From an uncultured Planctomycetia bacterium (GTDB taxonomy: Bacteria; Omnitrophota; Gorgyraeia; Pluralincolimonadales; Pluralincolimonadaceae), in the NCBI GenBank assembly GCA_964650515.1, contig CAZYUB010000004.1:5541-69540 (forward strand): a DNA stretch of 64,000 bases. Direction: 5' to 3'. Of this stretch, positions 4,986 to 31,369 are shown in pieces. The notes under the pieces are model-generated. The model made no database searches and was not told the DNA's origin. It worked only from the letters and a program-made list of their open reading frames with translations. Position 1 is the stretch's first letter, and each line of letters opens with the position of its first letter. Position numbers and translations under genes: made by a program.

Positions 4986-5936
4986 ATGAGACTATTAACG
5001 ATGGTGTCGATAATATTTATTATATTTATTGCCGTTTCATCAGACGCGCAGGAAATTCTGCAGGAAGAAGTGCTATTTCCAGTTGATATCTCCGGCAAGA
5101 TAGTCGATAAGGACGGAAAACTATTTACAGAAGAAGTGACACTAAACATTTATTCAGTAATTTGGCATATGGACTTGAACACTTATGATATACAAGAGAA
5201 AGAAGCCGATTATCAACAAAAAGTATCGGGAGGTTATTTTCAGTGGAAGGGAGCATCTAACAGAATATCAGTTAGTGTCGAAAGGGAAGGATACCATGAA
5301 GATAACATGCAAGTGCCGGATAGTGTTAGAATTATTGAAGAAGTAGACGGATATCCTACAAAATATGAGAATGAGATAATAGCAAAAGATATCATATTAC
5401 ATATGATCCCTAAAGGGGTTTCATCAAGGCTTGAATATGTCGGAGGTGCCGAGATACCCGACAAAAATGATAAAAAATCTGGCGGCAGGGAATGCGGATG
5501 GTCTTTCAAGAAGTTATGGTATTTTCCGGTTGCCGAAGAAGAGACTGTCTGGATGACAATGTCGCTTGATGAGAAAGGAAACAGCGTTTATACCATGAAA
5601 GAACCGGGCGGTTTTGTTTTATTTCGGGGGTATCCGAAATATGAAAGTAAGCCCGATAGACTTTTCGGAGGCTTTAATTGGATGACGCAGGCTCCGGAAT
5701 CCGGCTATGTACAGACTGTTAATCCAGAAAAGGATAAAATTGATAACAAAATAGCCTCATCGCCCTATTATTATTTCCGTACACCCGACGGAAAATACGG
5801 GAAGATTACATTTCCGGGTCTTTTTACTTACTACCTCAACCCCTCTGGCTCCCGCGACCTCGAGGCAGGGGAGGTAAAAGAGTTGGGTCCCGTCAACCCT
5901 AGTTATCAGGAATGGCTCGATGAGTGGGAAAAATAA
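4986..5936 (+). CDS. Secreted hypothetical protein (316 aa)
   Basis: Signal peptide MRLLTMVSIIFIIFIAVSSDAQE; AT-rich like the upstream gene; no recognisable catalytic motif. Confidence 0.5.
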   Translation: MRLLTMVSIIFIIFIAVSSDAQEILQEEVLFPVDISGKIVDKDGKLFTEEVTLNIYSVIWHMDLNTYDIQEKEADYQQKVSGGYFQWKGASNRISVSVEREGYHEDNMQVPDSVRIIEEVDGYPTKYENEIIAKDIILHMIPKGVSSRLEYVGGAEIPDKNDKKSGGRECGWSFKKLWYFPVAEEETVWMTMSLDEKGNSVYTMKEPGGFVLFRGYPKYESKPDRLFGGFNWMTQAPESGYVQTVNPEKDKIDNKIASSPYYYFRTPDGKYGKITFPGLFTYYLNPSGSRDLEAGEVKELGPVNPSYQEWLDEWEK

Positions 5937-5990
5937 TTGAAAGAATTTCCTCATAACTTACGTCTACTACCTTAGAAAGGAGATAAACAC

Positions 5991-6557
5991 ATGAGACATG
6001 TCGCACCCGCATTAATTATAGGTATCGTGCTTTTGCTTCCGATCAAGGCGGCGGCAGGCGAGGAACCCACCATCCAGGAGCTCCAGAAGGCCGCCATAAA
6101 GTACGCCGAGGTAAGCCCCGAGAAGATCTCTACCTGGCGTAAGCAAGCCGCAATGAAAGCCCTGCTTCCCGAGATAAGCGTCGGATACGGCAACGACGTA
6201 GATGCCACCATAACATCCGCCACGGCATCCGGCAGGACGAATTACTACATAGGCCCCGACGACACAAGCAGCAGCTGGGACTTCACCGCAAAGTGGGACT
6301 TAGGCGACCTCGTCTACAACAGCGCCCAGACCTCCATCGACTCGCGTTCCAAGCTCATGGTCCAGCTGCGTAACGACGTCCTCAACGACCTCAACACCGC
6401 CTACTTCGAAAGAAAGAAGATCCAGAAACAACTCGGTAAGATCCAGGACAAGGAAAGCGCCTCATACCTCGAAAGGGAATTCCGCATTGAAGAGCTTACC
6501 GCAACGATAGACGGCCTCACCGGCGGCTACCTGAGCCGAAGGATGGGGGAGGAATAA
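5991..6557 (+). CDS. Secreted hypothetical protein (188 aa)
   Basis: Signal peptide MRHVAPALIIGIVLLLPIKAAAG; coding-like composition; no family recognised. Confidence 0.5.
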   Translation: MRHVAPALIIGIVLLLPIKAAAGEEPTIQELQKAAIKYAEVSPEKISTWRKQAAMKALLPEISVGYGNDVDATITSATASGRTNYYIGPDDTSSSWDFTAKWDLGDLVYNSAQTSIDSRSKLMVQLRNDVLNDLNTAYFERKKIQKQLGKIQDKESASYLEREFRIEELTATIDGLTGGYLSRRMGEE

Positions 6558-22222: not shown

Positions 22223-25200
22223 CTTCACCGAATCCGAAATCGAAAATTATTCTCTCGATGAGCTAAAAAGGCTTGGGTTCTCGTATATTCCGGGCCCTGC
22301 AGTAGCTCCAGATGAAGCAGGGGCAGAGATGGTTGCGGAACCCGCAGTGCCTTATGGTTTATTTGAAAAGCGCGAGAGCTATGAAGATGTCATATTGAAG
22401 CATGCTTTAGAACAAGCCATCGAGCGGTTAAACCCCGCTATCTCCGAATCCGCACGCAAGGAAGCATTTAAAATGGTTCTTTCCGTATTTTCTCCTCAGC
22501 TAATCACTGCAAACGAAACTTTCCATACCATGCTTTCCGAAGGTGTGCCGGTTACTACGCACAAAGATGGGCAGGAGCGGGGGGAGAGGATATGGCTGAT
22601 CGATTTCCAGAATCCGGAAAACAACGTATTTTGCGCAATTAATCAGTTTACTGTCCAAGAGAATAATCAGCATAAGAGGCCGGATATAATTTTATATGTA
22701 AACGGAATGCCATTAGTGGTAATTGAGCTCAAGAATCCGGCTGATGCCAATGCTACGATTCGCAAGGCGTATGATCAAATCCAGACTTATAAAGTGGTTA
22801 TCCCGTCTTTATTCTTCTATAACGTTATTTGTGTGATTTCCGATGGTCTGGAGGCGAAGGTTGGCACAATAGCTTCTTCGTTTAGCCGGTTCCAGGCATG
22901 GAAGACTATCGATGGCAAGCAAGAGTCCTCAAGCCATGTTAGCCAGCTTGAGGTGCTGATTAAAGGAATGCTGAATAAGGCGACGCTTCTGGATTTGATA
23001 CGGAATTTCATCGTTTTCGAGAAGGACAAGAAGATCGATCCTAAGACCGGTTTGACGCAGATAGAAACAGTCAAGAAGATTGCCGCATATCATCAATATC
23101 ATGCGGTCAACAAGGCGGTTGAGAGCACGCGATGTGCCATATCCGAAAAAGGCAATCGCAAGGCTGGCGTAGTCTGGCATACTCAAGGCTCCGGCAAAAG
23201 CCTTTCTATGGTTTTCTATGCAGGCAAACTCATCCATAATCTCGACAATCCCACCGTTGTAGTTATTACCGACCGAAATGATCTTGATCAACAGCTTTTC
23301 GATACTTTTGCCGCTTCGCAGAGTTTACTCGGCCAGCCGCCGGTACAGGCGGAATCTCGCGACCATCTAAAATCTTTACTCAAGGTGGCATCGGGCGGAA
23401 TCGTATTTACCACAATCCAGAAGTTCTTTCCCGAGAATGAAAGCTCCACTTATGATCTGTTATCGGATCGCCGCAATATAATCGTCATTGCCGATGAGGC
23501 GCATCGGTCGCAATACGGGTTTGGGGCGAAGTTCGACGGCAAGCGGTTGGCCTACGGTTTTGCGAAATATTTGAGGGACGCCCTTCCAAGTGCGACATTT
23601 ATCGGGTTTACCGGTACGCCGGTTGAAAGTACAGATATCAACACTCCCGCAGTGTTCGGTAATTATATCGATATCTACGACGTCGCCCAGGCCATGGAAG
23701 ACGGAGCGACGGTGAAAATATATTATGAGAGTCGCTTGGCAAAGGTAAATCTGACGGCAGACGGTAGAAAACTGATCGAGGAGTTCGAGAAAGAGATGAC
23801 GGACGATGGAGCGACCGCCGTCCAGCAAGCCAAGGCCAAATGGACCAAGCTCGAAGCCATTGTCGGACATCCTCAACGGTTGAAGAATTTGGCAAGGGAT
23901 ATCGTCGAGCATTATAAGAAGCGTGCGGAAGTATTCGATGGCAAAGCCATGATCGTTACCATGAGTCGCAGGATTGCAGTGGCTTTGTACGACGCGATTA
24001 TCGCCTTGCGGCCGGAATGGCATAGCGATGATCTGAAGGAAGGTGCGCTGAAGGTCGTTATGACTTCGTCATCTTCCGATAAGATGGAATTCGATCCCGA
24101 AGATCCGGACAGCCTTGTTATTCCTGCTTGTCATCGCACGAACAAGCAAGACCGCCAGGTGCTTGCAGAAAGGATGAAAGAGCCGCGGGATCCTTTGAAA
24201 CTGGTTATCGTTCGGGATATGTGGTTGACGGGATTCGATGTTCCGTGCTTGCATACACTTTATATCGATAAACTAATGAAGGGCCATACTCTTATGCAGG
24301 CCATTGCGCGTGTGAACCGCGTGTTCATGGACAAGCCGGGTGGGCTTGTCGTCGATTATATCGGTATCGGCAACGCTCTTAAAGAAGCACTTGCATTTTA
24401 TGCGAGTTCGGGAGGAAAAGGCGATCCAGCCCAGACACAAGAAAAAGCAGTGGCTATGCTGGTCGAAAAAATAGAGGTGGTGCGCCAGATATTCCACGGA
24501 TTCGATTATATGCGGTTTTTCAAGGTGGGAACAGCGGAACGCTTGTCGATTATTCTACAAGCAGAGGAATTCATTCTTTCTAAAGAGCAGACGAAAGAAC
24601 GTTTTGTGAAGGAAGCGACTGCGCTTTCCAAGCTGTTCGCCTTGGCTGTACCGAACGAAGAAGCGATGAAACTGACGAATGAAATCGCTTTTTTTCAATC
24701 GGTCCGGGCGCGACTGCTTAAATTCGAAGGTGACGGAGAACGTGGAGAGAAAAGCTACGAAAGCGCTATACGTCAGATCGTGAATCAGGCGGTCGAATCG
24801 ACCGAGGTAGTAGATATTTTCGATGCGGCAGGGATTAAGAAGCCCGATATTTCCTTACTTTCCGAAGAATTTATGCTGGAAGTCAAGGAGATGAAGAATA
24901 AGAATCTAGGCGCTGAACTTCTGAAGAAGATTCTTAATGATGAGATTAAAGTGCGACTGAAATACAATATTACCGAAGGCAAAAAACTGTTGGATCTGCT
25001 GGAAGCATCTATAAGAAAATATCAGAACAATTTATTGACTACGGCAGAGATAATCGAAGAATTGATAAATATTGCCCGTCAAATTCGCGAAGTTGACGGG
25101 TTATCGGAGAAATTGAAGTTATCCAACGAGGAATTCGCTTTTTATACGGCGTTGGAGGTGAACGATAGCGCTGTAAAGGTATTAGGTGATGAAACACTCA

Positions 25201-25415
25201 AAGTCATCGCACGAGAAATAGCCGATAAGGTGCGCAAAAACGCTAGTATCGACTGGGCCCTGAAAGAAAGCGCTCGCGCGCGTCTCATGGTCATCGTCCG
25301 CCGCACACTGAATAAATATGGTTATCCGCCTGACAAGCAGCAGAAAGCGATCGATACCGTTATGAAGCAGGCCGAAGTGTTGGCGGATTATTGGGTCAAG
25401 AATGAGGAGAAATAA
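22214..25415 (+). CDS. hsdR: Type I restriction enzyme R subunit HsdR
   Basis: Nuclease region VIELKNPAD, helicase motif I TQGSGKSLSM, motif II IADEAHRSQ, motif VI QAIARVNR; about 1070 aa. Confidence 0.9.
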
Positions 25416-25432
25416 AAGTAGAAGGAGGTACC

Positions 25433-25699
25433 ATGGGGATTGAAAAAGAGTTTAGTTTTGGCAGTTGTGAATTTTCACGTTTAAGCCCGGATAAAATAAT
25501 TCCAAGTACAAAAAAGTTAAATATTATAGTTGGCTTTGGGGAAGCTTTAAAGCTAAATCTTGCTATTGAAGAATGCCTGAGGAAATTAAATAGATATAAA
25601 AGAAGCACGAGAGAAGGAAAGAGAGCCGCCATAAACCTCACCATACATTTTGATGTAGAAAGAATTTCTGTTTCCGAAGAAAAGACCAGAGAGATTTAA
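25433..25699 (+). CDS. Hypothetical small protein (88 aa)
   Basis: AT-rich ORF with an RBS (GGAGG) 8 nt upstream; no family recognised. Confidence 0.35.
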   Translation: MGIEKEFSFGSCEFSRLSPDKIIPSTKKLNIIVGFGEALKLNLAIEECLRKLNRYKRSTREGKRAAINLTIHFDVERISVSEEKTREI

Positions 25700-25709
25700 A
25701 AACAAAAAT

Positions 25710-26210
25710 GTGAGGTACAACATGCTTATTAAAAACGAGATAACTGTAGGAGATTTAATTGCAATGGCTGGCTTTATCGCAGCTGCGATAGGTTTGTTTC
25801 TGACGTTTTATCAAATACTTAAAAGCAATAAGCATAAACGAGCAGAATTTATCATGGATTTTTGTAAACAATTTATGGATTCAAACGATTTGCTAAAAAT
25901 GTATTATGATATTGAATACGGGAGCTTTCATGCGCCTGTTTTTGGTTCTCATTCTTCCGAAGAAGTTCAGCTAGACAAGTTGTTAATGCTTTTTGAAAAT
26001 GTATCCACGCTGTATGAAATGGGTAATATTTGTCTTAAGGATTTAAGCGTTATTTCGTATTACTTTATCAGAGTTTATGAAAACGAAGGTGTAAAACAAT
26101 ATTTATTTGCATTAGATGATTGGTGTAAAAAAAGCGGATTGCCTAAAAGGTACTGTTCTTTTAGAAATGTTTATATTGTTTTGAGTAAAAATCCACAAAA
26201 ATTATTATAG
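25710..26210 (+). CDS. Hypothetical protein with an N-terminal TM helix (166 aa)
   Basis: ITVGDLIAMAGFIAAAIGLFLTFYQIL TM segment followed by a soluble domain; it sits in the defence island immediately after hsdR. Confidence 0.4.
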   Translation: MRYNMLIKNEITVGDLIAMAGFIAAAIGLFLTFYQILKSNKHKRAEFIMDFCKQFMDSNDLLKMYYDIEYGSFHAPVFGSHSSEEVQLDKLLMLFENVSTLYEMGNICLKDLSVISYYFIRVYENEGVKQYLFALDDWCKKSGLPKRYCSFRNVYIVLSKNPQKLL

Positions 26211-26220
26211 ACAATAAATC

Positions 26221-26619
26221 ATGAAAATTTTTATCAAAACTTCAACTAAAACTTTTTCCGCCGAACTTAATTCCTGCGCTACAGCCTGTGCCATAGCCTC
26301 CAAGCTTCCCATCACCGCGAAAGCGGAAGTATGGGGAGAGGAGATATATTTCAGGATCCCGATAAAGTGCAAGCCGGAGAACGCCACGATGGACGTCAAT
26401 GTCGGCGATATTGCCTACTGGCCGCCGGGGGCATGCTTGTGCCTGTTCTTCGGCCAGACGCCGGAAAGCACAGGGGCCAAGCCGGTCCCCGCCTCGGAGG
26501 TCAATATAGTCGGCAGGATCGCGGGGAATCTTTCCGCACTTAAGGGCGTCAAAGAGGGCGATACCATAAAAGTGGAAGATGCCAAAGAGGCAAGCGAGAT
26601 ACTTAAAGATTTGAGTTAA
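26221..26619 (+). CDS. Cyclophilin-like-fold (DUF3830-like) protein
   Basis: Pattern ...LPITAKAEVWGEEIYF...GDIAYWPPG resembles the DUF3830/cyclophilin-like family. Low certainty. Confidence 0.35.
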   Translation: MKIFIKTSTKTFSAELNSCATACAIASKLPITAKAEVWGEEIYFRIPIKCKPENATMDVNVGDIAYWPPGACLCLFFGQTPESTGAKPVPASEVNIVGRIAGNLSALKGVKEGDTIKVEDAKEASEILKDLS

Positions 26620-26644
26620 GATTCAGGGGTGTTTCCCGCCAAAA

Positions 26645-26702
26645 ATAATTATGAAAGGAAATTCCTCCTTTTAGCGTCTATTATAGTGAAAGGAGGCGCT
26701 TC
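26645..26702 (+). promoter_or_regulatory. Conserved TA-cassette leader element, copy 1 (SD-sequestering hairpin)
   Basis: AAATTCCTCCTTTTAGCGTCTATTATAGTGAAAGGAGG. The upstream arm is complementary to the SD sequence AAAGGAGG, and an ATG follows 8 nt later. Confidence 0.6.
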
Positions 26703-26777
26703 ATGGCTGTTAAAGGCATCTTGACATCCGGCCCGGGATCGGTTAAACTATGTTTAGGTAAGGAAGTAAGAAAGTAA
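26703..26777 (+). CDS. Possible 24-aa leader peptide
   Basis: The ATG directly follows the conserved SD sequence; MAVKGILTSGPGSVKLCLGKEVRK; may be only a regulatory uORF. Confidence 0.25.
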   Translation: MAVKGILTSGPGSVKLCLGKEVRK

Positions 26778-26781
26778 GGAA

Positions 26782-27060
26782 ATGGAGGATAACATGACCG
26801 TAGTCGGAATGTCAAAGATCACATCAAAGGGGCAGGTTACCTTGCCGGCCGCAGTAAGAAAACTGCTTAAGCTCGACAAGGGCAATTGCGTGGCGTTTTG
26901 CGTCGATAAGGCGGGAATAATCCTTTCCCAATGTAAGATAAGCGTCGAGCCGTCAGCTTTCACGGCCGAGGAATGGCGCAAGATCGAGCAACTGGCCGGC
27001 GCAAAAGGCAAAGTATTCGCATCTGCCGAAGAAGCCAAGAAGCATATCAAGAGTTTATGA
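26782..27060 (+). CDS. AbrB/MazE/SpoVT-family antitoxin
   Basis: SpoVT_AbrB signature ITSKGQVTLPAAVRKLLKL. Confidence 0.7.
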   Translation: MEDNMTVVGMSKITSKGQVTLPAAVRKLLKLDKGNCVAFCVDKAGIILSQCKISVEPSAFTAEEWRKIEQLAGAKGKVFASAEEAKKHIKSL

Positions 27061-27341
27061 GATATGAGTTCAAGCCATCGTTTGAAGACTCCATAAAGAA
27101 CTTGAATCTGGAAGACAGGGGAGAGATAATTAAAGCTGCCTTTCAAGTAATTGATATTTTAGGCCGGGAAAGAATGTTACATAAGGGTGTCGGGCTTAAG
27201 CGCTTGAAAGGTGATTATTGGGAGATAAGAAAAGGATTGGATGCTCGGATATTATTCAGGTTTAGCGGGGACCTGGTTGAGTTTGTACTATCTGGCAATC
27301 ATGATCAAATTAAACGATACCTGCGGAATTTAAAATCTTAA
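27057..27341 (+). CDS. RelE/ParE-family toxin
   Basis: ATGA start/stop overlap with the antitoxin gene; LKGDYWEIRKG.DARILFRFSGDLVEFVLSGNHDQ fits the RelE/ParE core. Confidence 0.65.
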   Translation: MRYEFKPSFEDSIKNLNLEDRGEIIKAAFQVIDILGRERMLHKGVGLKRLKGDYWEIRKGLDARILFRFSGDLVEFVLSGNHDQIKRYLRNLKS

Positions 27342-27429
27342 AGCGTGATTTTGTTTGCACCGACATAGCATGGAGGAGGTGATGAAGATCAAACAATGAT
27401 GCCGGGCAAGCGGTTGAGATAAATTACCA

Positions 27430-27540
27430 ATTTACCCCAGAGGGGTCACCCCGAGAAACAGTTTAAATCTCTTCGAGATTTAAACATCGGGCCCTGCGGG
27501 GTAAAATTCGCCTGAAACTTGAAGCGGGCGAATTTTAGTG
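27430..27540 (+). promoter_or_regulatory. Structured 5' leader (three consecutive hairpins) upstream of the SIMPL gene
   Basis: ACCCC-AGA-GGGGT; a perfect 11-bp stem GTTTAAATCTC-TTC-GAGATTTAAAC (27461..27485); a 10-bp stem AAAATTCGCC-N14-GGCGAATTTT (27503..27536). Confidence 0.4.
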
Positions 27541-27555
27541 AGGGGAGATAAGCGG

Positions 27556-28284
27556 ATGGGTAAGTATGTCATTTTCGGGGTATGTTTTTTGGCAGCATCG
27601 GTAGGCTCAGCGGTGATATTGACCAACGGGATGGTGAAGTTCAAGAAGGCCTCGGCAGAGGTGATAAACGTCACCGGCTCGGCCGAGAAGAGGATAACGT
27701 CGGATTACGCGGTCTGGACGGCCGAGTTCTCGGCGCGGGACCCGCAGATGAAGGCCGCGTTCGCCAGGTTAAAAGAGGACACGGCCAAGGTCAGGGCCTA
27801 CCTCGCGTCCAAAGGGATAACCGAGGGCGAGATGATCGTTTCGCAGGTGGAGACGGCGGTCATCTACAAGAAGAACGAGAAGGGCATCGCCACCAACGAG
27901 ATAGAGGCCTACAGCTTGAGCCAGGGGATAGAGGCGCGCTCGACCGACGTCGCCAAGATAACCGCCGTGTCGCGCGAATCGACGGCGCTCATCGAGCAGG
28001 ATATCAGGTTCGTTTCACACCCGCCGCAGTATTTTTACACCAAGCTGGCCGAGCTGAAGCTCGAGATGCTTGGCGCGGCATCGGCGGACGCCAAAAAGCG
28101 GGCCGAACAGATCGCGTCGGCCTCGGGCAACAGGGTCGGCAGGATTCGCTCCGCGGACATGGGCGTCTTCCAGATAACGCCGGTCAATTCGACCGAGGTC
28201 TCGGACTGGGGCAGTAACGATACCTCATCACTCGAGAAGAAGGTCTTCGCGGTCGTGCATGCGGATTTTGCGATAACGGAATAA
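27556..28284 (+). CDS. SIMPL-domain (DUF541) periplasmic protein
   Basis: N-terminal TM/signal segment, then INVTGSAEKRITSDYAVWTAEFSARDP... typical of SIMPL/26-kDa periplasmic immunogenic proteins. Confidence 0.6.
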   Translation: MGKYVIFGVCFLAASVGSAVILTNGMVKFKKASAEVINVTGSAEKRITSDYAVWTAEFSARDPQMKAAFARLKEDTAKVRAYLASKGITEGEMIVSQVETAVIYKKNEKGIATNEIEAYSLSQGIEARSTDVAKITAVSRESTALIEQDIRFVSHPPQYFYTKLAELKLEMLGAASADAKKRAEQIASASGNRVGRIRSADMGVFQITPVNSTEVSDWGSNDTSSLEKKVFAVVHADFAITE

Positions 28285-28287
28285 GAT

Positions 28288-28309
28288 GGTTGCCCCCGCG
28301 AGGGCAACC
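28288..28309 (+). terminator. Hairpin after the SIMPL gene (GGTTGCCC-CCGCGA-GGGCAACC)
   Basis: Perfect 8-bp GC-rich stem 4 nt after the stop, followed by an A/T-rich tract (TAAATAATT) rather than a clean U-run. Confidence 0.4.
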
Positions 28310-28313
28310 TAAA

Positions 28314-28369
28314 TAATTGAAAGAAAATTCCCTCCTTTGGCGTCTATATAGCTAAAGGAGGGAGTTTTT
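28314..28369 (+). promoter_or_regulatory. Conserved TA-cassette leader element, copy 2
   Basis: TTGAAAGAAAATTCCCTCCTTTGGCGTCTATATAGCTAAAGGAGGGAGTTTTTATG. The 14-nt arm AAATTCCCTCCTTT and AAAGGAGGGAGTTT pair at 13 of 14 positions and cover the SD sequence. Confidence 0.65.
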
Positions 28370-28600
28370 ATGAGAATTGTACTTTCATCTCATGCGCAAG
28401 AGCGTATCGTTGAACGAAACATCAGAAAAGACGATGTGATAGAAACAATAAAGAATCCTGGTATTACCTGTCCGACGAAACATAAACATCGAAAAAGGGT
28501 TATGAAGAGCTTGAACGGCGCTACCCTCGATGTTATAATTGAAACACGAGGAGATAAGATTATAGTCGTTACATGCGCGATGCTGAAGAAGGAGGCCTGA
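28370..28600 (+). CDS. DUF4258-family toxin
   Basis: MRIVLSSHAQERIVERNI...DDV pattern (H..ER..ERgI) typical of DUF4258. Confidence 0.6.
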   Translation: MRIVLSSHAQERIVERNIRKDDVIETIKNPGITCPTKHKHRKRVMKSLNGATLDVIIETRGDKIIVVTCAMLKKEA

Positions 28601-28602
28601 AA

Positions 28603-28842
28603 ATGATAATAAATATAGACACCCAAGCTAAAGCTGCATACGTAAAATTAAAAGAAGGCGCATGCCACCACACCAAGGAGATCCTTCCGGAGGTTTTTGC
28701 CGATTTTAACTCCCGCAACGAAATCATCGGAGTGGAGCTTATTAGCCCGTGTACTGTCACGCTCAGGAAGCTCGCGCAAAAATTAAAATTGCCCGTTTTT
28801 AACAAGATCAAAAAACCCCTCGAAGAGATCTGCTCGCAATAA
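28603..28842 (+). CDS. DUF2283-family antitoxin
   Basis: MIINIDTQAKAAYVKLKEG (M.I.YD.E.DALYI.L pattern). Starts 2 nt after the toxin stop behind GAAGGAGG. Confidence 0.6.
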   Translation: MIINIDTQAKAAYVKLKEGACHHTKEILPEVFADFNSRNEIIGVELISPCTVTLRKLAQKLKLPVFNKIKKPLEEICSQ

Positions 28843-28857
28843 ATAAAGGAGCCCCAA

Positions 28858-29682
28858 ATGCTTAAAGAACAGAAGATCCGCGACCTGACGCTGAAGATCA
28901 TACAGGTCATAGTGTGGTTCGAGATACTCTGGGCGGTAGTGTTCATCACGAGCATGGTCTTCCAGTGGTCAGGCATAACCGACCAGCTTGCGTCGGCGTT
29001 CTTCAGCAGCGGGTTCTGCGCGGTCATCATACTCGTGGCGCTGACGCTGCTGAACGTCACCGCGAACCTCAACATCATATCGAAGGCGCAGGTCAATAAA
29101 TATGCCGGCGCAGAAGAGGCGCCGGAGGACAAACAGGCGACGATGAAGATACTCGCCGTCTCGGGCGCGCTGATAGTCGCTATAGTCGGCTCGCTCTGGC
29201 TCGTCGAGTTCCATACGTACAGGATAAAGGCCGCCGATACGGCCGCGAAGATAGAGTCGATAGTCGACACAAAACTGATCGACGACGCCATCGGCATCGT
29301 AAAAAGCGACGGCAAGATATCCGACCTGTCCGCGATAAGGGACGCGCTCACCGCGACGATGAACACGGGCGGCCACCTCTCCGTGATATTCCCTCAGGAC
29401 GTGCTCGGCGTGAAGGTCTATTACGAGCTTACCGCGTGGAGCCACTGGCAGGATAAGGACGACAAGAAGATATCCGAGGCGTACCTGCAGAAGTACGTTC
29501 CGCGCGCCGGCGAGCAGAAGAAGTGGGATAAGCTTGCCGCCGGCCAAATAGACACCTTCACGGTGCCTTCGGGCGGCAACCTGCGCATGTTCCGCCGTGT
29601 CAAGCGCGCGAACGGCGAACTTATCCTGTGCGTCGACACAAGCCGCAGGTTCGATTACAGCAGGAGCAGCTTTAAGGACTAG
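28858..29682 (+). CDS. Membrane protein, hypothetical (274 aa)
   Basis: Three N-terminal TM helices plus a soluble domain; the antisense ORF 28569..29366 is rejected on Ser-rich antisense composition. Confidence 0.5.
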   Translation: MLKEQKIRDLTLKIIQVIVWFEILWAVVFITSMVFQWSGITDQLASAFFSSGFCAVIILVALTLLNVTANLNIISKAQVNKYAGAEEAPEDKQATMKILAVSGALIVAIVGSLWLVEFHTYRIKAADTAAKIESIVDTKLIDDAIGIVKSDGKISDLSAIRDALTATMNTGGHLSVIFPQDVLGVKVYYELTAWSHWQDKDDKKISEAYLQKYVPRAGEQKKWDKLAAGQIDTFTVPSGGNLRMFRRVKRANGELILCVDTSRRFDYSRSSFKD

Positions 29683-29728
29683 GGGACGTGTCACTTTGCA
29701 AAGTCCCGCCACAGCGGGGGGACACTCC
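29683..29728. repeat. Family-2 repeat copy D (intergenic)
   Basis: GGGGACGTGTCACTTTGCAAAGTCCCGCCACAGCGGGGGGACACTCC. Confidence 0.7.
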
Positions 29729-29731
29729 ATA

Positions 29732-29790
29732 AAATAGTTGAAAGAAAATTCCCTCTTTTAGCGTCTATTACGTTAAAGGAGGGAATTTTT
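29732..29790 (+). promoter_or_regulatory. Conserved TA-cassette leader element, copy 3
   Basis: AAAATAGTTGAAAGAAAATTCCCTCTTTTAGCGTCTATTACGTTAAAGGAGGGAATTTTTATG, followed by a 6-codon uORF (MGKLVK). Confidence 0.65.
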
Positions 29791-29817
29791 ATGGGCAAAC
29801 TGGTTAAGTAGGATGTT

Positions 29818-30354
29818 GTGCGGCAGAAGATCTTTTTAGTAAGGGACAAAAAGGTGATGTTTAGTGTGCACTTGGCAAAGCTTTATGGAGTTGAAACTAA
29901 GGTACTGATGCAGGCAGTAAAGCGTAACATAAAAAGGTTTCCGGCAGATTTTATGTTCCAGCTGACATGGGAAGAGGCCGTTTCTTTAAGGTCACAGATT
30001 GTGACCTTAAATACCCAAGAACTCGAAAACCCAAGGTCACAGATTGTGACCTTGAAACGCGGGAAGCATATAAAGTATTTGCCCTACGCATTTACCGAGC
30101 TGGGAGTAGCCATGTTGTCTAGTGTATTGAAAAGTGAAAGGGCTATTCAGATAAATATGGCTATAATGCGTGCTTTTGTAAGGATAAGGGAAATATTTGC
30201 GGAAAATAAAGAACTTGCACGGGAAGTGAAAGAGCATGGTAAAATATTAAGCGAGCACGGGCGACATATTTCAGCCATCCATCACATGATAGATGAATTA
30301 ATAACGCCGCCTGAAGAGAAGCCAAAACGCAAGATCGGTTTTCATCGGGATTGA
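29818..30354 (+). CDS. ORF6N (KilA-N-related) domain protein (GTG start)
   Basis: VMFSVHLAKLYGVETKVLMQAVKRNIKRFPADFMFQLT...YLPYAFTELGVAMLSSVL matches the ORF6N domain. Contains a duplicated LRSQIVTL segment encoded by two perfect 21-bp palindromes. Confidence 0.65.
   Translation: MRQKIFLVRDKKVMFSVHLAKLYGVETKVLMQAVKRNIKRFPADFMFQLTWEEAVSLRSQIVTLNTQELENPRSQIVTLKRGKHIKYLPYAFTELGVAMLSSVLKSERAIQINMAIMRAFVRIREIFAENKELAREVKEHGKILSEHGRHISAIHHMIDELITPPEEKPKRKIGFHRD
29988..30063. repeat. Two identical 21-bp perfect palindromes AAGGTCACAGATTGTGACCTT (29988..30008 and 30043..30063) inside the ORF6N gene
   Basis: 9-bp arms AAGGTCACA/TGTGACCTT with a GAT centre, repeated 55 bp apart. Confidence 0.85.
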
Positions 30355-30418
30355 TACCGGATGCCCAAAAGATTGAAATGCCTTGCGCCTATTGTCGACT
30401 CGCGACCGGCAGGAGACC

Positions 30419-31369
30419 ATGACTAAAGGTAAGCATACAAACAGGCAGGAGTACGTGATGCGCGCGGCTCTCGTGAGCCTGTGGTGCAACGTCGTTCTCT
30501 TCACTTTTAAGGGCACGGCGTTCTTTATCGTCCATTCGCTCGCGATCGCCACCGACTTCGCGATAACGGTGGTGGGGCTGAGCGTATCGGTCATATTGTA
30601 TTATTCGCTGAAGCTCGCGCACCGGCCCGCCGATATAATGCATAATTACGGCTACGGCAAGATAGAGCACGTCTGCGAGGCGATAGAGGGGATAGTGCTC
30701 ATCGGCATAGCGCTCGCGATGATCGCCCAGTCGGCGAAGTCGCTCGTGCACCCGGAGCATGTGAACAACCCCGTCCTCGGCCTCGCGTCGAGCATCCTGA
30801 GCTTCACGCTGAATTTCGGCGGGTCGTATTATATCCTGAAGATGGGAAGGAAGAGCGGCTCGCCCGCCGTGCGCGCCGAAGGCATCCATTACATGCTCGA
30901 GGGTTTTATCTCCCTCGCGATAGCCGGGGCGTTCGTGCTGTCGATGTTCCTGGTCTCCCGCGGCAATGATAGGGTCGCGATATATCTCGACCCCGTCGTA
31001 ACGATGATCGTCAGCATCGCGATAGCGGTGCCCTCGTTCGGCATCGCGAAAGGGGCCTTCTCGAACCTGCTCGATGCCTCGATAGAGGAGCCCGGCAAGA
31101 TGGATGTCGTCGTGAGCTTGGCGCAGAACGCCGGCCTCTTCTGCGACTTCAGCGACATACGCACGCGCGTCGCGGGCCACAAAAAATTCATAAACCTCAA
31201 GATAATCCTGCCGGCGCAGTTGTCGTTCGTCGAGGCGAACAAGATAGTAAAAAAGGTGGAAGACGATATAACGTCCGCCGTGCCGGACAGCGAGGTCTTC
31301 GTGAAGATGGAGGCCTGCCGCCGCGACTGCCTCGTGCTCAAGAACGGCGGGGAATGCCCGTACCTTTAA
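30419..31369 (+). CDS. Cation diffusion facilitator (CDF) family metal efflux transporter
   Basis: TM domain with LAIATDFAITVVGL and HNYGYGKIEHV; C-terminal cytoplasmic domain. Confidence 0.8.
   Translation: MTKGKHTNRQEYVMRAALVSLWCNVVLFTFKGTAFFIVHSLAIATDFAITVVGLSVSVILYYSLKLAHRPADIMHNYGYGKIEHVCEAIEGIVLIGIALAMIAQSAKSLVHPEHVNNPVLGLASSILSFTLNFGGSYYILKMGRKSGSPAVRAEGIHYMLEGFISLAIAGAFVLSMFLVSRGNDRVAIYLDPVVTMIVSIAIAVPSFGIAKGAFSNLLDASIEEPGKMDVVVSLAQNAGLFCDFSDIRTRVAGHKKFINLKIILPAQLSFVEANKIVKKVEDDITSAVPDSEVFVKMEACRRDCLVLKNGGECPYL

Follow-up and report, generated by a model that had tools for sequence, protein, structure and literature searches.

Accessory gene cassettes in a 64,000-nucleotide (nt) stretch of Omnitrophota DNA (contig CAZYUB010000004.1; hereafter the window) are preceded by copies of an approximately 60-bp element, in which a hairpin arm is complementary to the Shine–Dalgarno (SD) sequence of the gene behind it. 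We propose, with moderate confidence and on the basis of sequence analysis, that this element is a self-insulating promoter module of Omnitrophota accessory cassettes, in which an anti-SD spacer would silence read-through RNA. A preliminary description of this DNA had reported three near-identical leaders, each folding over a ribosome-binding site in front of a different toxin–antitoxin (TA)-like cassette, and had read them as a shared regulatory RNA, thermosensor-like or responsive to a trans-acting factor, that gates translation.

Under our proposal, the element would act as a non-sigma-70, extracytoplasmic function (ECF)-sigma-like promoter, with TTGAAAG (TyGTTAG elsewhere) as its -35 block, a spacer of 17 (or 16) bp, and CGTCTAYTA, located in the hairpin loop, as its -10 block. 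Transcription would start 6–9 nt past CGTC, at the 5' boundary of the right arm, and a strong SD (AAAGGAGG) and the start codon would follow ~20 nt 3' of this predicted start. In copies driving toxic or mobile cargo, the spacer would have evolved into the anti-SD sequence TTCCCTCYTTT. Since the spacer would be absent from the element's own transcript, the cassette's own mRNA would present a free SD, and read-through RNA from a co-oriented upstream gene would contain both arms and fold into a 10–21 bp hairpin burying the SD; the U-run behind most stems may also terminate such RNA. With read-through RNA silenced and the own mRNA open, expression of the cargo would thus depend on the firing of its own promoter. 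By calculation, opening the SD costs 14.8 kcal/mol in read-through RNA of copy 2 and 17.0 kcal/mol in that of copy 3, and 2.0 and 0.5 kcal/mol, respectively, in an RNA starting 7 nt past CGTC. We infer the promoter activity, start site, sigma factor and insulating effect from the copies themselves, their hairpin and its covariation, the fixed spacing of two blocks, the conservation of these blocks where the hairpin is missing, and the spectrum of cargo.

The four copies in the window, all located at gene 5' ends, are as follows:

26651-26705, + strand: copy 1, whole element, weaker than copies 2 and 3, chimeric
26651-26657, + strand: copy 1, -35-like block ATGAAAG (family consensus TTGAAAG), exactly 17 nt 5' of CGTCT
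26664-26696, + strand: copy 1, hairpin, with left arm CCTCCTTTTA (26664-26673) and right arm TGAAAGGAGG (26687-26696)
26675-26683, + strand: copy 1, loop with the -10-like CGTCTATTA
28317-28372, + strand: copy 2, whole element
28317-28323, + strand: copy 2, -35-like block TTGAAAG
28323-28369, + strand: copy 2, hairpin, with left anti-SD arm (28323-28341), loop (28342-28350) and right arm (28351-28369)
29738-29793, + strand: copy 3, whole element
29738-29744, + strand: copy 3, -35-like block TTGAAAG
29744-29790, + strand: copy 3, hairpin, with left arm (29744-29764), loop (29765-29769) and right arm (29770-29790)
5937-5993, + strand: copy 4, diverged, with TTGAAAG (5937-5943), a 17-nt spacer, CGTCTACTA (5961-5969), AGAAAGGAG (5974-5982) and ATG (5991)

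Copies 1 to 3 lie where the preliminary description had placed them, and the SD-occluding fold it predicted is borne out for copies 2 and 3. In both, the right arm consists of the SD and a T-run, reading AAAGGAGGG(A/G)(A/G)TTTTT and directly abutting the ATG (28370 and 29791, respectively). The stem of copy 2 comprises 19 consecutive bp (folding free energy, dG, -29.6 kcal/mol; z -6.8) and that of copy 3 comprises 21 (dG -28.8 kcal/mol; z -6.9), and none of 200 shuffled sequences was equally stable in either case. The -10-like CGTCTATAT of copy 2 (28341-28349) starts on the final base of the left arm and occupies most of the loop, and the corresponding CGTCTATTA of copy 3 (29762-29770) extends from the end of the left arm through the loop to the first base of the right arm. 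The term "near-identical" suits these two copies, which share 87% identity across 62 nt (28311-28372 vs 29732-29793), and does not extend to copy 1, which reads ATGAAAG-GAAATTCCTCCTTTTAG-CGTCTATTA-TAGTGAAAGGAGGCGCTTCATG. Just 10 bp pair in copy 1 (dG -15.8 kcal/mol; z -1.45 against shuffles), there is no T-run, and the outer arms (AAATT vs GCGCT) are unpaired. Copy 4, which had been missed, retains TTGAAAG-N17-CGTCTACTA and, spaced as in the other copies, the SD and ATG, yet does not fold (dG -7; z 0); its spacer matches that of copy 2 at 6/17 positions only, and its -35 block adjoins the stop codon TAA (5934-5936) of the gene 5' of it.

A covariance model built from related copies (R1) scored copy 3 at 92 bits and copy 2 at 86.8 bits (E ~1e-15 for both) and copy 1 at 41 bits, and across the 64-kb window retrieved a single further copy, copy 4 (5929-5993; 22.1 bits), and no others. 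A bare 14-mer search was weakly above chance (4 matches vs 0.68 expected, with 4 reached in 2/100 shuffles), so that significance rests on full-length similarity. No family of Rfam 15 matched the window at gathering score, the interval 26500-30000 yielding noise alone (E up to 5). Outside the window, loci were collected from genome, metagenome and orthologue searches (L-numbers below), and the model recovered ~40 distinct copies in them. Scanning 185,579 species genomes for an arm-only pattern yielded 80 loci, and those that also had the loop motif came from Candidatus Omnitrophota metagenome-assembled genomes (MAGs) or from two MAGs labelled Planctomycetales; a left-half pattern scan of JGI metagenomes yielded 35 loci. 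Exact-pattern matches otherwise lay on unclassified metagenome contigs with the same host genes as the window, and the window host genes share 76–92% nt identity with several of the family contigs. The first collection pattern, AAATTCCNNCNTTTNGCGTCTAT, had no match in the genome and viral collections, nor did the family pattern in the viral scan, and seven loci (L083, L085, L087, L092, L096, L103 and L115) were discarded as apparent chance matches of the metagenome pattern. Outside Omnitrophota, most loci matching the loose hairpin pattern, in Clostridia, Bacilli and other groups, were likewise set aside as unrelated SD/anti-SD hairpins. As a separate observation, such unrelated hairpins in Clostridiales MAGs (L012, L018, L020, L022, L043 and L044) have a perfect extended -10 in their loop (TGTGCTATAAT or TGTGATACAAT), which suggests that the layout of an anti-SD arm in the spacer and a -10 in the loop may recur in other phyla.

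The window and the ~40 related-genome copies uphold the view that the same leader stands before unrelated cargo and appears to have spread with, or between, cassettes. Behind it are ORF6N genes (at least 8 copies), IS200-like Y1 transposases (6), TA-like pairs (DUF4258-DUF2283, AbrB with a RelE-like protein, Gp49/HigB with an HTH protein, RHH with ParE, and RHH with MazF), an N6/N4 DNA methylase, DUF3800, a DUF6036 nucleotidyltransferase and a RhuM-like protein, and loci such as L105 hold four leader copies within 12 kb. We distinguish class A copies, with TTGAAAG, from class B copies, with TyGTTAG. The class B copies in L006, L029, L052, L064 and L069 are syntenic, located between a secreted-protein gene (motif ITITTYYPSPYGSY) and the recA promoter, a canonical TTGACA-N17-TATAAT; in L046 and L070 the gene 3' of the element is a four-helix-bundle gene instead. 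Some family members have a degenerate right arm followed by a separate sigma-70 promoter.

Base pairing was counted by our own script in 29 copies anchored on the SD core, and in a consistent subset of close relatives (A4); a MAFFT alignment (A3) was not used for these counts, as it had shifted six right arms by one column. Between the left arm CCTCYTTT and its pairing partner AAAGGAGG lies a 5–20 nt loop, which places the anti-SD within ~25 nt 5' of the SD. The core 8 bp are unbroken in 29/29 copies, one position alternating between C-G and U.G, and compensatory changes occur beside this invariant core: offset -1 has CG22/GC2/AT1/GT1, offset +8 has AT12/TG6/TA4/CG4/GT2, and offset +9 has GC7/TA6/GT5/AT4/TG2/CG1. 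Outer stems vary by type (TTCCC/GGGAA, GCGCC/GGCGC, CTCCC/GGGAG, ACC/GGT and CGCC/GGCG), and several copies have unmatched outer arms. In subset A4, 89.5% of cells are paired, vs 50–67% with partners slid. Taken together, this pattern indicates that the SD/anti-SD hairpin is under selection in the sense strand: there are 38 G.U cells on the + strand vs 7 A.C cells, an asymmetry which argues for a single-stranded sense-strand fold and not for a duplex operator. The inverted repeat surrounds a promoter-like core, class B copies lie 5' of recA, and one copy lies 3' of a lexA-dinB operon, all of which would suit a shared repressor, for instance an SOS-like or ORF6N-type DNA-binding protein, that recognizes the repeat as a double-stranded DNA operator. 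Against such an operator, which we consider highly improbable, stand the strand asymmetry of the wobbles, an inter-arm distance that ranges from 5 to 20 nt, and hairpin-less copies that keep TTGAAAG and CGTCTAYTA alone. An SOS/LexA box was specifically rejected: in L114, the sequence 5' of lexA contains no related motif, and the promoter-proximal region of recA differs.

Conservation across the family is highest in TTGAAAG and the loop CGTCTAYTA, and not in the stem. Every class A copy has (A)AAWTAR-TTGAAAG 5' of the left arm, a few (including window copy 1) with ATGAAAG or GTGAAAG, and CGTCTA is present in all class A copies found, in 8/9 class B copies (L064 has CGTCAA) and in hairpin-less copies. 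A genome scan without an imposed loop returned CGTCTA in 10/11 Omnitrophota matches and CGTCAA in the other. The distance from TGAAAG to CGTCT was 17 nt in 6/6 matches of a search left free to range over 16–18, and the spacing is 17 bp in all class A copies and 16 (once 17) bp in class B. This distance holds when the CCTCC block moves by 1 nt inside the spacer, and the SD follows CGTCT after anything between 8 and >30 nt.

The copy 4 gene (5991-6557) encodes a conserved 188-amino-acid (aa) secreted protein whose homologues are all Omnitrophota-named. Its orthologues in five Omnitrophota lineages keep both blocks, with divergent and non-complementary spacers:

L117/L118, 84% aa identity: TTGAAAG-N17-CGTCTACTA
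L119/L120, 72% aa identity: TTGAAAG-N17-CGTCTATTA
L121, 65% aa identity: TTGAAAG-N17-CGTCTATTA
L122, 65% aa identity: ATGAAAG-N17-CGTCTATCTA
L124, 40% aa identity: TCGTTAG-N16-CGTCTATTA

The block of L124 corresponds to the class B form TyGTTAG-N16-CGTCTATTA, so that class A and class B can be taken as lineage variants of a single type of element. In L119 (4795-5484, - strand) and L120 (5175-5864), a Y1 transposase start codon lies 8 nt past CGTC without an SD, as would be expected of a leaderless mRNA from the same promoter type. In L024, L091, L104, L110, L004, L109, L117 and at window copy 4, the 5' open reading frame (ORF) reaches or enters TTGAAAG, leaving no room for another promoter. 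Two blocks at a fixed distance, with a free spacer, deep conservation and the right distance from SD and ATG, form the signature of a promoter, and if they behave as one, the upstream arm would be located in non-transcribed DNA. Of the known promoter types, sigma-70 was rejected because TTGAAA-TAYTAY would be 22 bp and a start 7 nt past TAYTAY would cut into the SD. The bases and spacing do not fit the sigma-54 and sigma-32 consensus sequences; for sigma-54 (-24 GG / -12 GC), copies 1 and 3 have TAGCGT at that place and the spacing is wrong. The family does have the CGTC of the ECF-type -10 element (CGTC/CGTA) and a tightly fixed spacer within the 14–17 bp range of ECF promoters. Cargo also fits insulation, the host gene with the same promoter being hairpin-less and ORF6N, toxin, transposase and DUF3800 genes having the hairpin.

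These same observations bear on the possibility that the whole element lies in the 5' untranslated region (UTR) of its own gene, as a leader-RNA riboregulator whose SD is opened by heat, a helicase, a protein or a trans-acting RNA. This is unlikely in our view, even though the hairpin buries the SD, the stem covaries with wobbles on the sense strand, and the cargo is often toxic. Contiguous stems of 19–21 bp at ~-29 kcal/mol are unlike the imperfect, marginal stems of RNA thermometers (ROSE, fourU), and too stable for the thermosensor suggested in the preliminary description to be supported. The factor-gated leader it offered as the other option is likewise not supported, in view of the flank and loop blocks, which persist at fixed spacing and structure-free 5' of a host gene, and of the leaderless-type Y1 start. 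A riboregulator would in addition be left without a promoter 5' of it where coding sequence abuts TTGAAAG, and no Rfam family matches. A pseudoknot between upstream AAUAG and loop CUAUU was rejected on inspection, as it shows no covariation and the loop changes do not match TAA-type flanks.

Several observations weigh against the self-insulating promoter. Covariation in subset A4 is modest (0.165 vs 0.131, a value reached by 11/500 shuffles), and the metagenome pattern imposed TTGAAAG, CCTCYTTT and CGTCT, such that conservation at those positions is not independent in that subset. The ECF-type -35 AAC motif is absent, the block being TTGAAAG or TyGTTAG with G for C, and no copy of the motif lies 5' of an ECF-like sigma gene in L122 (11618), the one such gene examined, which need not be the cognate one. 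The class B copies near recA (at least five genomes) have an SD-like right arm without a start codon behind it, to which terminator and upstream-promoter roles fit and translational insulation does not. Some toxic cargo (HigBA, an RHH-ParE pair, and the methylase in L105) stands behind a degenerate hairpin only, and L098/L099 have a 2-codon ORF behind the hairpin, together with a separate sigma-70-type promoter.

The class B copies, located at a gene's 3' end and ahead of the separate recA promoter, would also suit a hairpin that is chiefly an intrinsic terminator of the upstream gene, its SD complementarity arising incidentally as the terminator was packed against the start of the next gene. 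Copies 2 and 3 and most family members have a T-run behind the stem, and 5' terminators of mobile genes are known (PMC2965389). We nevertheless judge this improbable, since the T-run is missing in copy 1, L105a, L084 and L101, a terminator consensus scan did not call the elements (loop or stem outside its limits), and the invariant arm sequence, conserved loop and fixed 17-nt spacing would be left unexplained. Moreover, separate GC-rich hairpins already lie 5' of copies 2 and 3, and are likely the terminators of the host genes 5' of them:

28288-28309, + strand: GC-rich hairpin GGTTGCCCCCGCGAGGGCAACC, between the SIMPL stop codon and copy 2
29683-29724: similar GC hairpin region ahead of copy 3

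Termination is nonetheless compatible with the self-insulating promoter, for which it could provide a second layer of insulation.

Comparison of loci indicates that cassettes are exchanged behind the leader. The slot after SIMPL holds DUF4258-DUF2283 in the window, ORF6N in L024, AbrB-RelE then ORF6N in L105, and others in L091, the leader always being ahead, and the position behind the membrane-protein gene is occupied by ORF6N (window, L104) or HigBA (L110, L024). From the loop rightwards, copy 1 shares 97% identity with L105a, which falls to ~50% in the spacer; the outer arms of L105a (GCGCC/GGCGC) do match (dG -29.1). The unmatched outer arms of copy 1 and this break in identity point to a recombinant. 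In L024 (3598-3634) and L093, a left half-leader ends directly after CGTCT. At 3180-3590 of L024, the tail of a HigBA-like HTH antitoxin is 86% nt identical to the C-terminus of the window AbrB gene (26969-27060); this tail, followed by the half leader and an ORF6N remnant, indicates that cassettes are mosaic. Homology breakpoints inside the leader (copy 1, L024) show that it also serves as a recombination junction, and we regard it as a frequent crossover point, the breakpoints not telling apart homologous, palindrome-stimulated and site-specific exchange.

One could go further and read the leader as primarily a recombination site or handle at cassette boundaries, integron-like or hairpin-directed, with secondary regulatory features. 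The variable cargo of single slots behind the same leader, the left/right chimera of copy 1, the half-leaders of L024 and L093, the unmatched outer arms of several copies, and the six loci in which Y1 HUH transposase genes carry the leader would all agree with this. We think it quite unlikely: no second, inverted or 3'-end copy was found flanking either a cassette or a Y1 gene, the cassettes have no consistent link to a recombinase, the motif also serves a fixed host gene, and homologous recombination or palindrome-stimulated breakage within a 30–60 nt repeat gives the same junctions. Specific site types were rejected as well. The integron attC core (RYYYAAC/GTTRRRY) is absent, GTTGAAA failing at the Y position and copy 2 reading ATTGAAA (inspection), and a REP/RAYT or IS200/IS605 end does not agree with a single copy, always 5' of the Y1 gene, and no second hairpin.

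A more far-reaching version of the promoter proposal, which we put forward as speculative and would not expect to hold in full, is a dedicated alternative-sigma regulon (TTGAAAG/TyGTTAG-N16/17-CGTCTAYTA) co-switching defence, TA and transposase cassettes together with recA, with toxic members insulated and the leader as crossover point. This would amount to an integron-like economy without attC or integrase, in which cassettes are swapped between slots and genomes through the 60-nt leader. Integron cassette arrays are built on attC sites and a Pc promoter. The leader resembles them in having small accessory or TA genes in one orientation, a hairpin-forming repeat at each, and variable cargo per slot; in contrast to integrons, the repeat is at the 5' end with promoter and SD, R''/R' cores are lacking, cassettes alternate with host genes, and no integrase link was found.

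Three known kinds of system come close to the proposed module, namely promoter-encoded anti-SD insulators, fold-back protection of insertion sequences (IS) and mobile promoters; its main interest would lie in the putative new class of promoter and in how this connects with cassette exchange. In sigma-54 promoters, anti-SD motifs in the non-transcribed part insulate against read-through (Levy et al., bioRxiv 10.1101/086108). The predicted Omnitrophota module likewise has a CT-rich anti-SD in the promoter, within ~25 nt of the SD, that would be present only in read-through RNA; unlike the 3–5 nt motifs of sigma-54 insulators, its anti-SD is 10–21 nt long and forms a perfect long stem, and it differs further in having no GG-N10-GC, in its mobile or toxic cargo, in forming a repeat family and in its usual U-run. 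IS200 combines a terminator with an SD-sequestering stem-loop (PMC4513863), and IS elements have 5' terminators, Tn10 protecting itself against external promoters (PMC2965389); fold-back inhibition in IS10/IS50 was described by Davis, Simons and Kleckner in 1985, as cited in PMC2965389. As in IS10/IS50/IS200, a mobile or harmful gene would be shielded from outside transcription by SD structure and terminator, and IS200-like Y1 transposase genes are among the cargo. However, the SD-occluding stem of IS200 lies in its own 5' UTR, whereas the Omnitrophota stem is predicted to be split by the transcription start, and the leader has no terminal repeats and no second hairpin as an IS end would. ECF promoters (Bacillus subtilis sigW/X/M/V) have tgaAAC, a 14–17 bp spacer and CGTC/CGTA (PMC5758882). 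The leader shares with them the -10 CGTC, a GAAA-rich -35, a 16–17 bp spacer, near-consensus copies and few targets per genome; it differs in a -35 ending in GAAAG/GTTAG instead of AAC and in a longer conserved -10, CGTCTAYTA, and no autoregulated sigma operon was found. Mobile promoters are highly similar upstream regions before non-homologous genes, within and between genomes (Matus-Garcia et al., PMC3488235), from which the leader differs in its built-in structural insulator, its defence, TA and mobile cargo, and its restriction to one phylum.

If confirmed, the module would give an uncultured phylum its first non-canonical class of promoter, along with a small regulon. Promoter-embedded anti-SD insulation has so far been shown mainly with synthetic libraries and Escherichia coli sigma-54 promoters, and the leader would mean that nature uses a long, perfect and propagated anti-SD module, keeping toxins, transposases and anti-repressor-like genes silent until their own promoter fires. 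It would also offer a sequence tag for locating accessory-gene cassettes and exchange points in Omnitrophota genomes, for which an unusually active mobilome has been reported (bioRxiv 10.64898/2026.05.20.726742). More generally, annotation should allow for the possibility that an SD-sequestering hairpin beside a gene lies outside that gene's mRNA.

The window cassettes have ~40% G+C and are set among ~60% G+C host genes of the same strand, flanked by genes for a cyclophilin-like protein, SIMPL, a membrane protein and a CDF transporter. Their contents are as follows:

26703-26777, + strand: so-called 24-aa upstream ORF (uORF), containing a sigma-70-type promoter sequence, TTGACA (26721-26726), N17 and TAAACT (26744-26749)
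26794-27060, + strand: cargo 1, AbrB/MazE-type antitoxin (PF04014)
27060-27341, + strand: cargo 1 partner, 93-aa RelE-like protein, overlapping the antitoxin gene
28370-28842, + strand: cargo 2, DUF4258 (28370-28600) and DUF2283 (28603-28842)
29791-30354, + strand: cargo 3, ORF6N gene, with an in-frame TAG at 29809-29811 (codon 7)

Two of the three cassettes had been mislabelled as TA-like. The first, described as a 24-aa uORF plus an AbrB-RelE pair, appears to have its own promoter 3' of the element: the putative uORF, nearly identical in sequence in the intact relative L105a, is probably the promoter region of the AbrB operon and not a gene. The AbrB/MazE assignment of this pair stands; its RelE-like partner has no Pfam, NCBIfam or PDB sequence match, and 5/168 of the partner's homologues bear JGI's RelE name. 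The DUF4258-DUF2283 genes are a predicted TA-like pair, with toxin function assumed; copy 2's leader and this cargo also occur together in L101/L111, and an exact-protein look-up for DUF4258 matched a single identical short contig.

The third cassette holds ORF6N, a single DNA-binding-type domain and no TA module. The 6-aa uORF described ahead of it (29791) is in frame with the ORF6N frame at 29818, and codon 7, TAG in the window, is CAG in L004 and L104 and CAC in L024, from which we infer that this uORF is the true start of a nonsense-mutated ORF6N gene. The gene also contains a 24-nt palindromic block, AAGGTCACAGATTGTGACCTT, twice (29988-30011 and 30033-30056, 45 nt apart), and is likely a decaying gene or pseudogene, or restarted at GTG 29818. 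Immediately downstream, a 21-aa ORF (30361-30426; MPKRLKCLAPIVDS...) is what remains of a 339-aa host gene, of which L093, L024 and L105 have intact versions (MPKMLKCLAPIVGPNTRVLILGSFPG...); sequence separating the ORF6N cassette from the CDF transporter gene has thus been deleted in the window.

Two further regions lie near the cassettes. A second low-GC island (24800-26210; ~30–39% G+C), without a leader copy ahead of it, contains two ORFs without an assigned family (25433-25699 and 25710-26210) and is 82–91% nt conserved in L109 and L110. The intergenic sequence 5' of SIMPL (27342-27560) is 80–90% nt conserved in L024, L086, L091 and L105 and has a high predicted degree of structure (dG -69.2; z -3.2), including a perfect palindrome (27461-27485) and a hairpin (27503-27537); it has no Rfam match and is possibly a conserved leader or terminator cluster.

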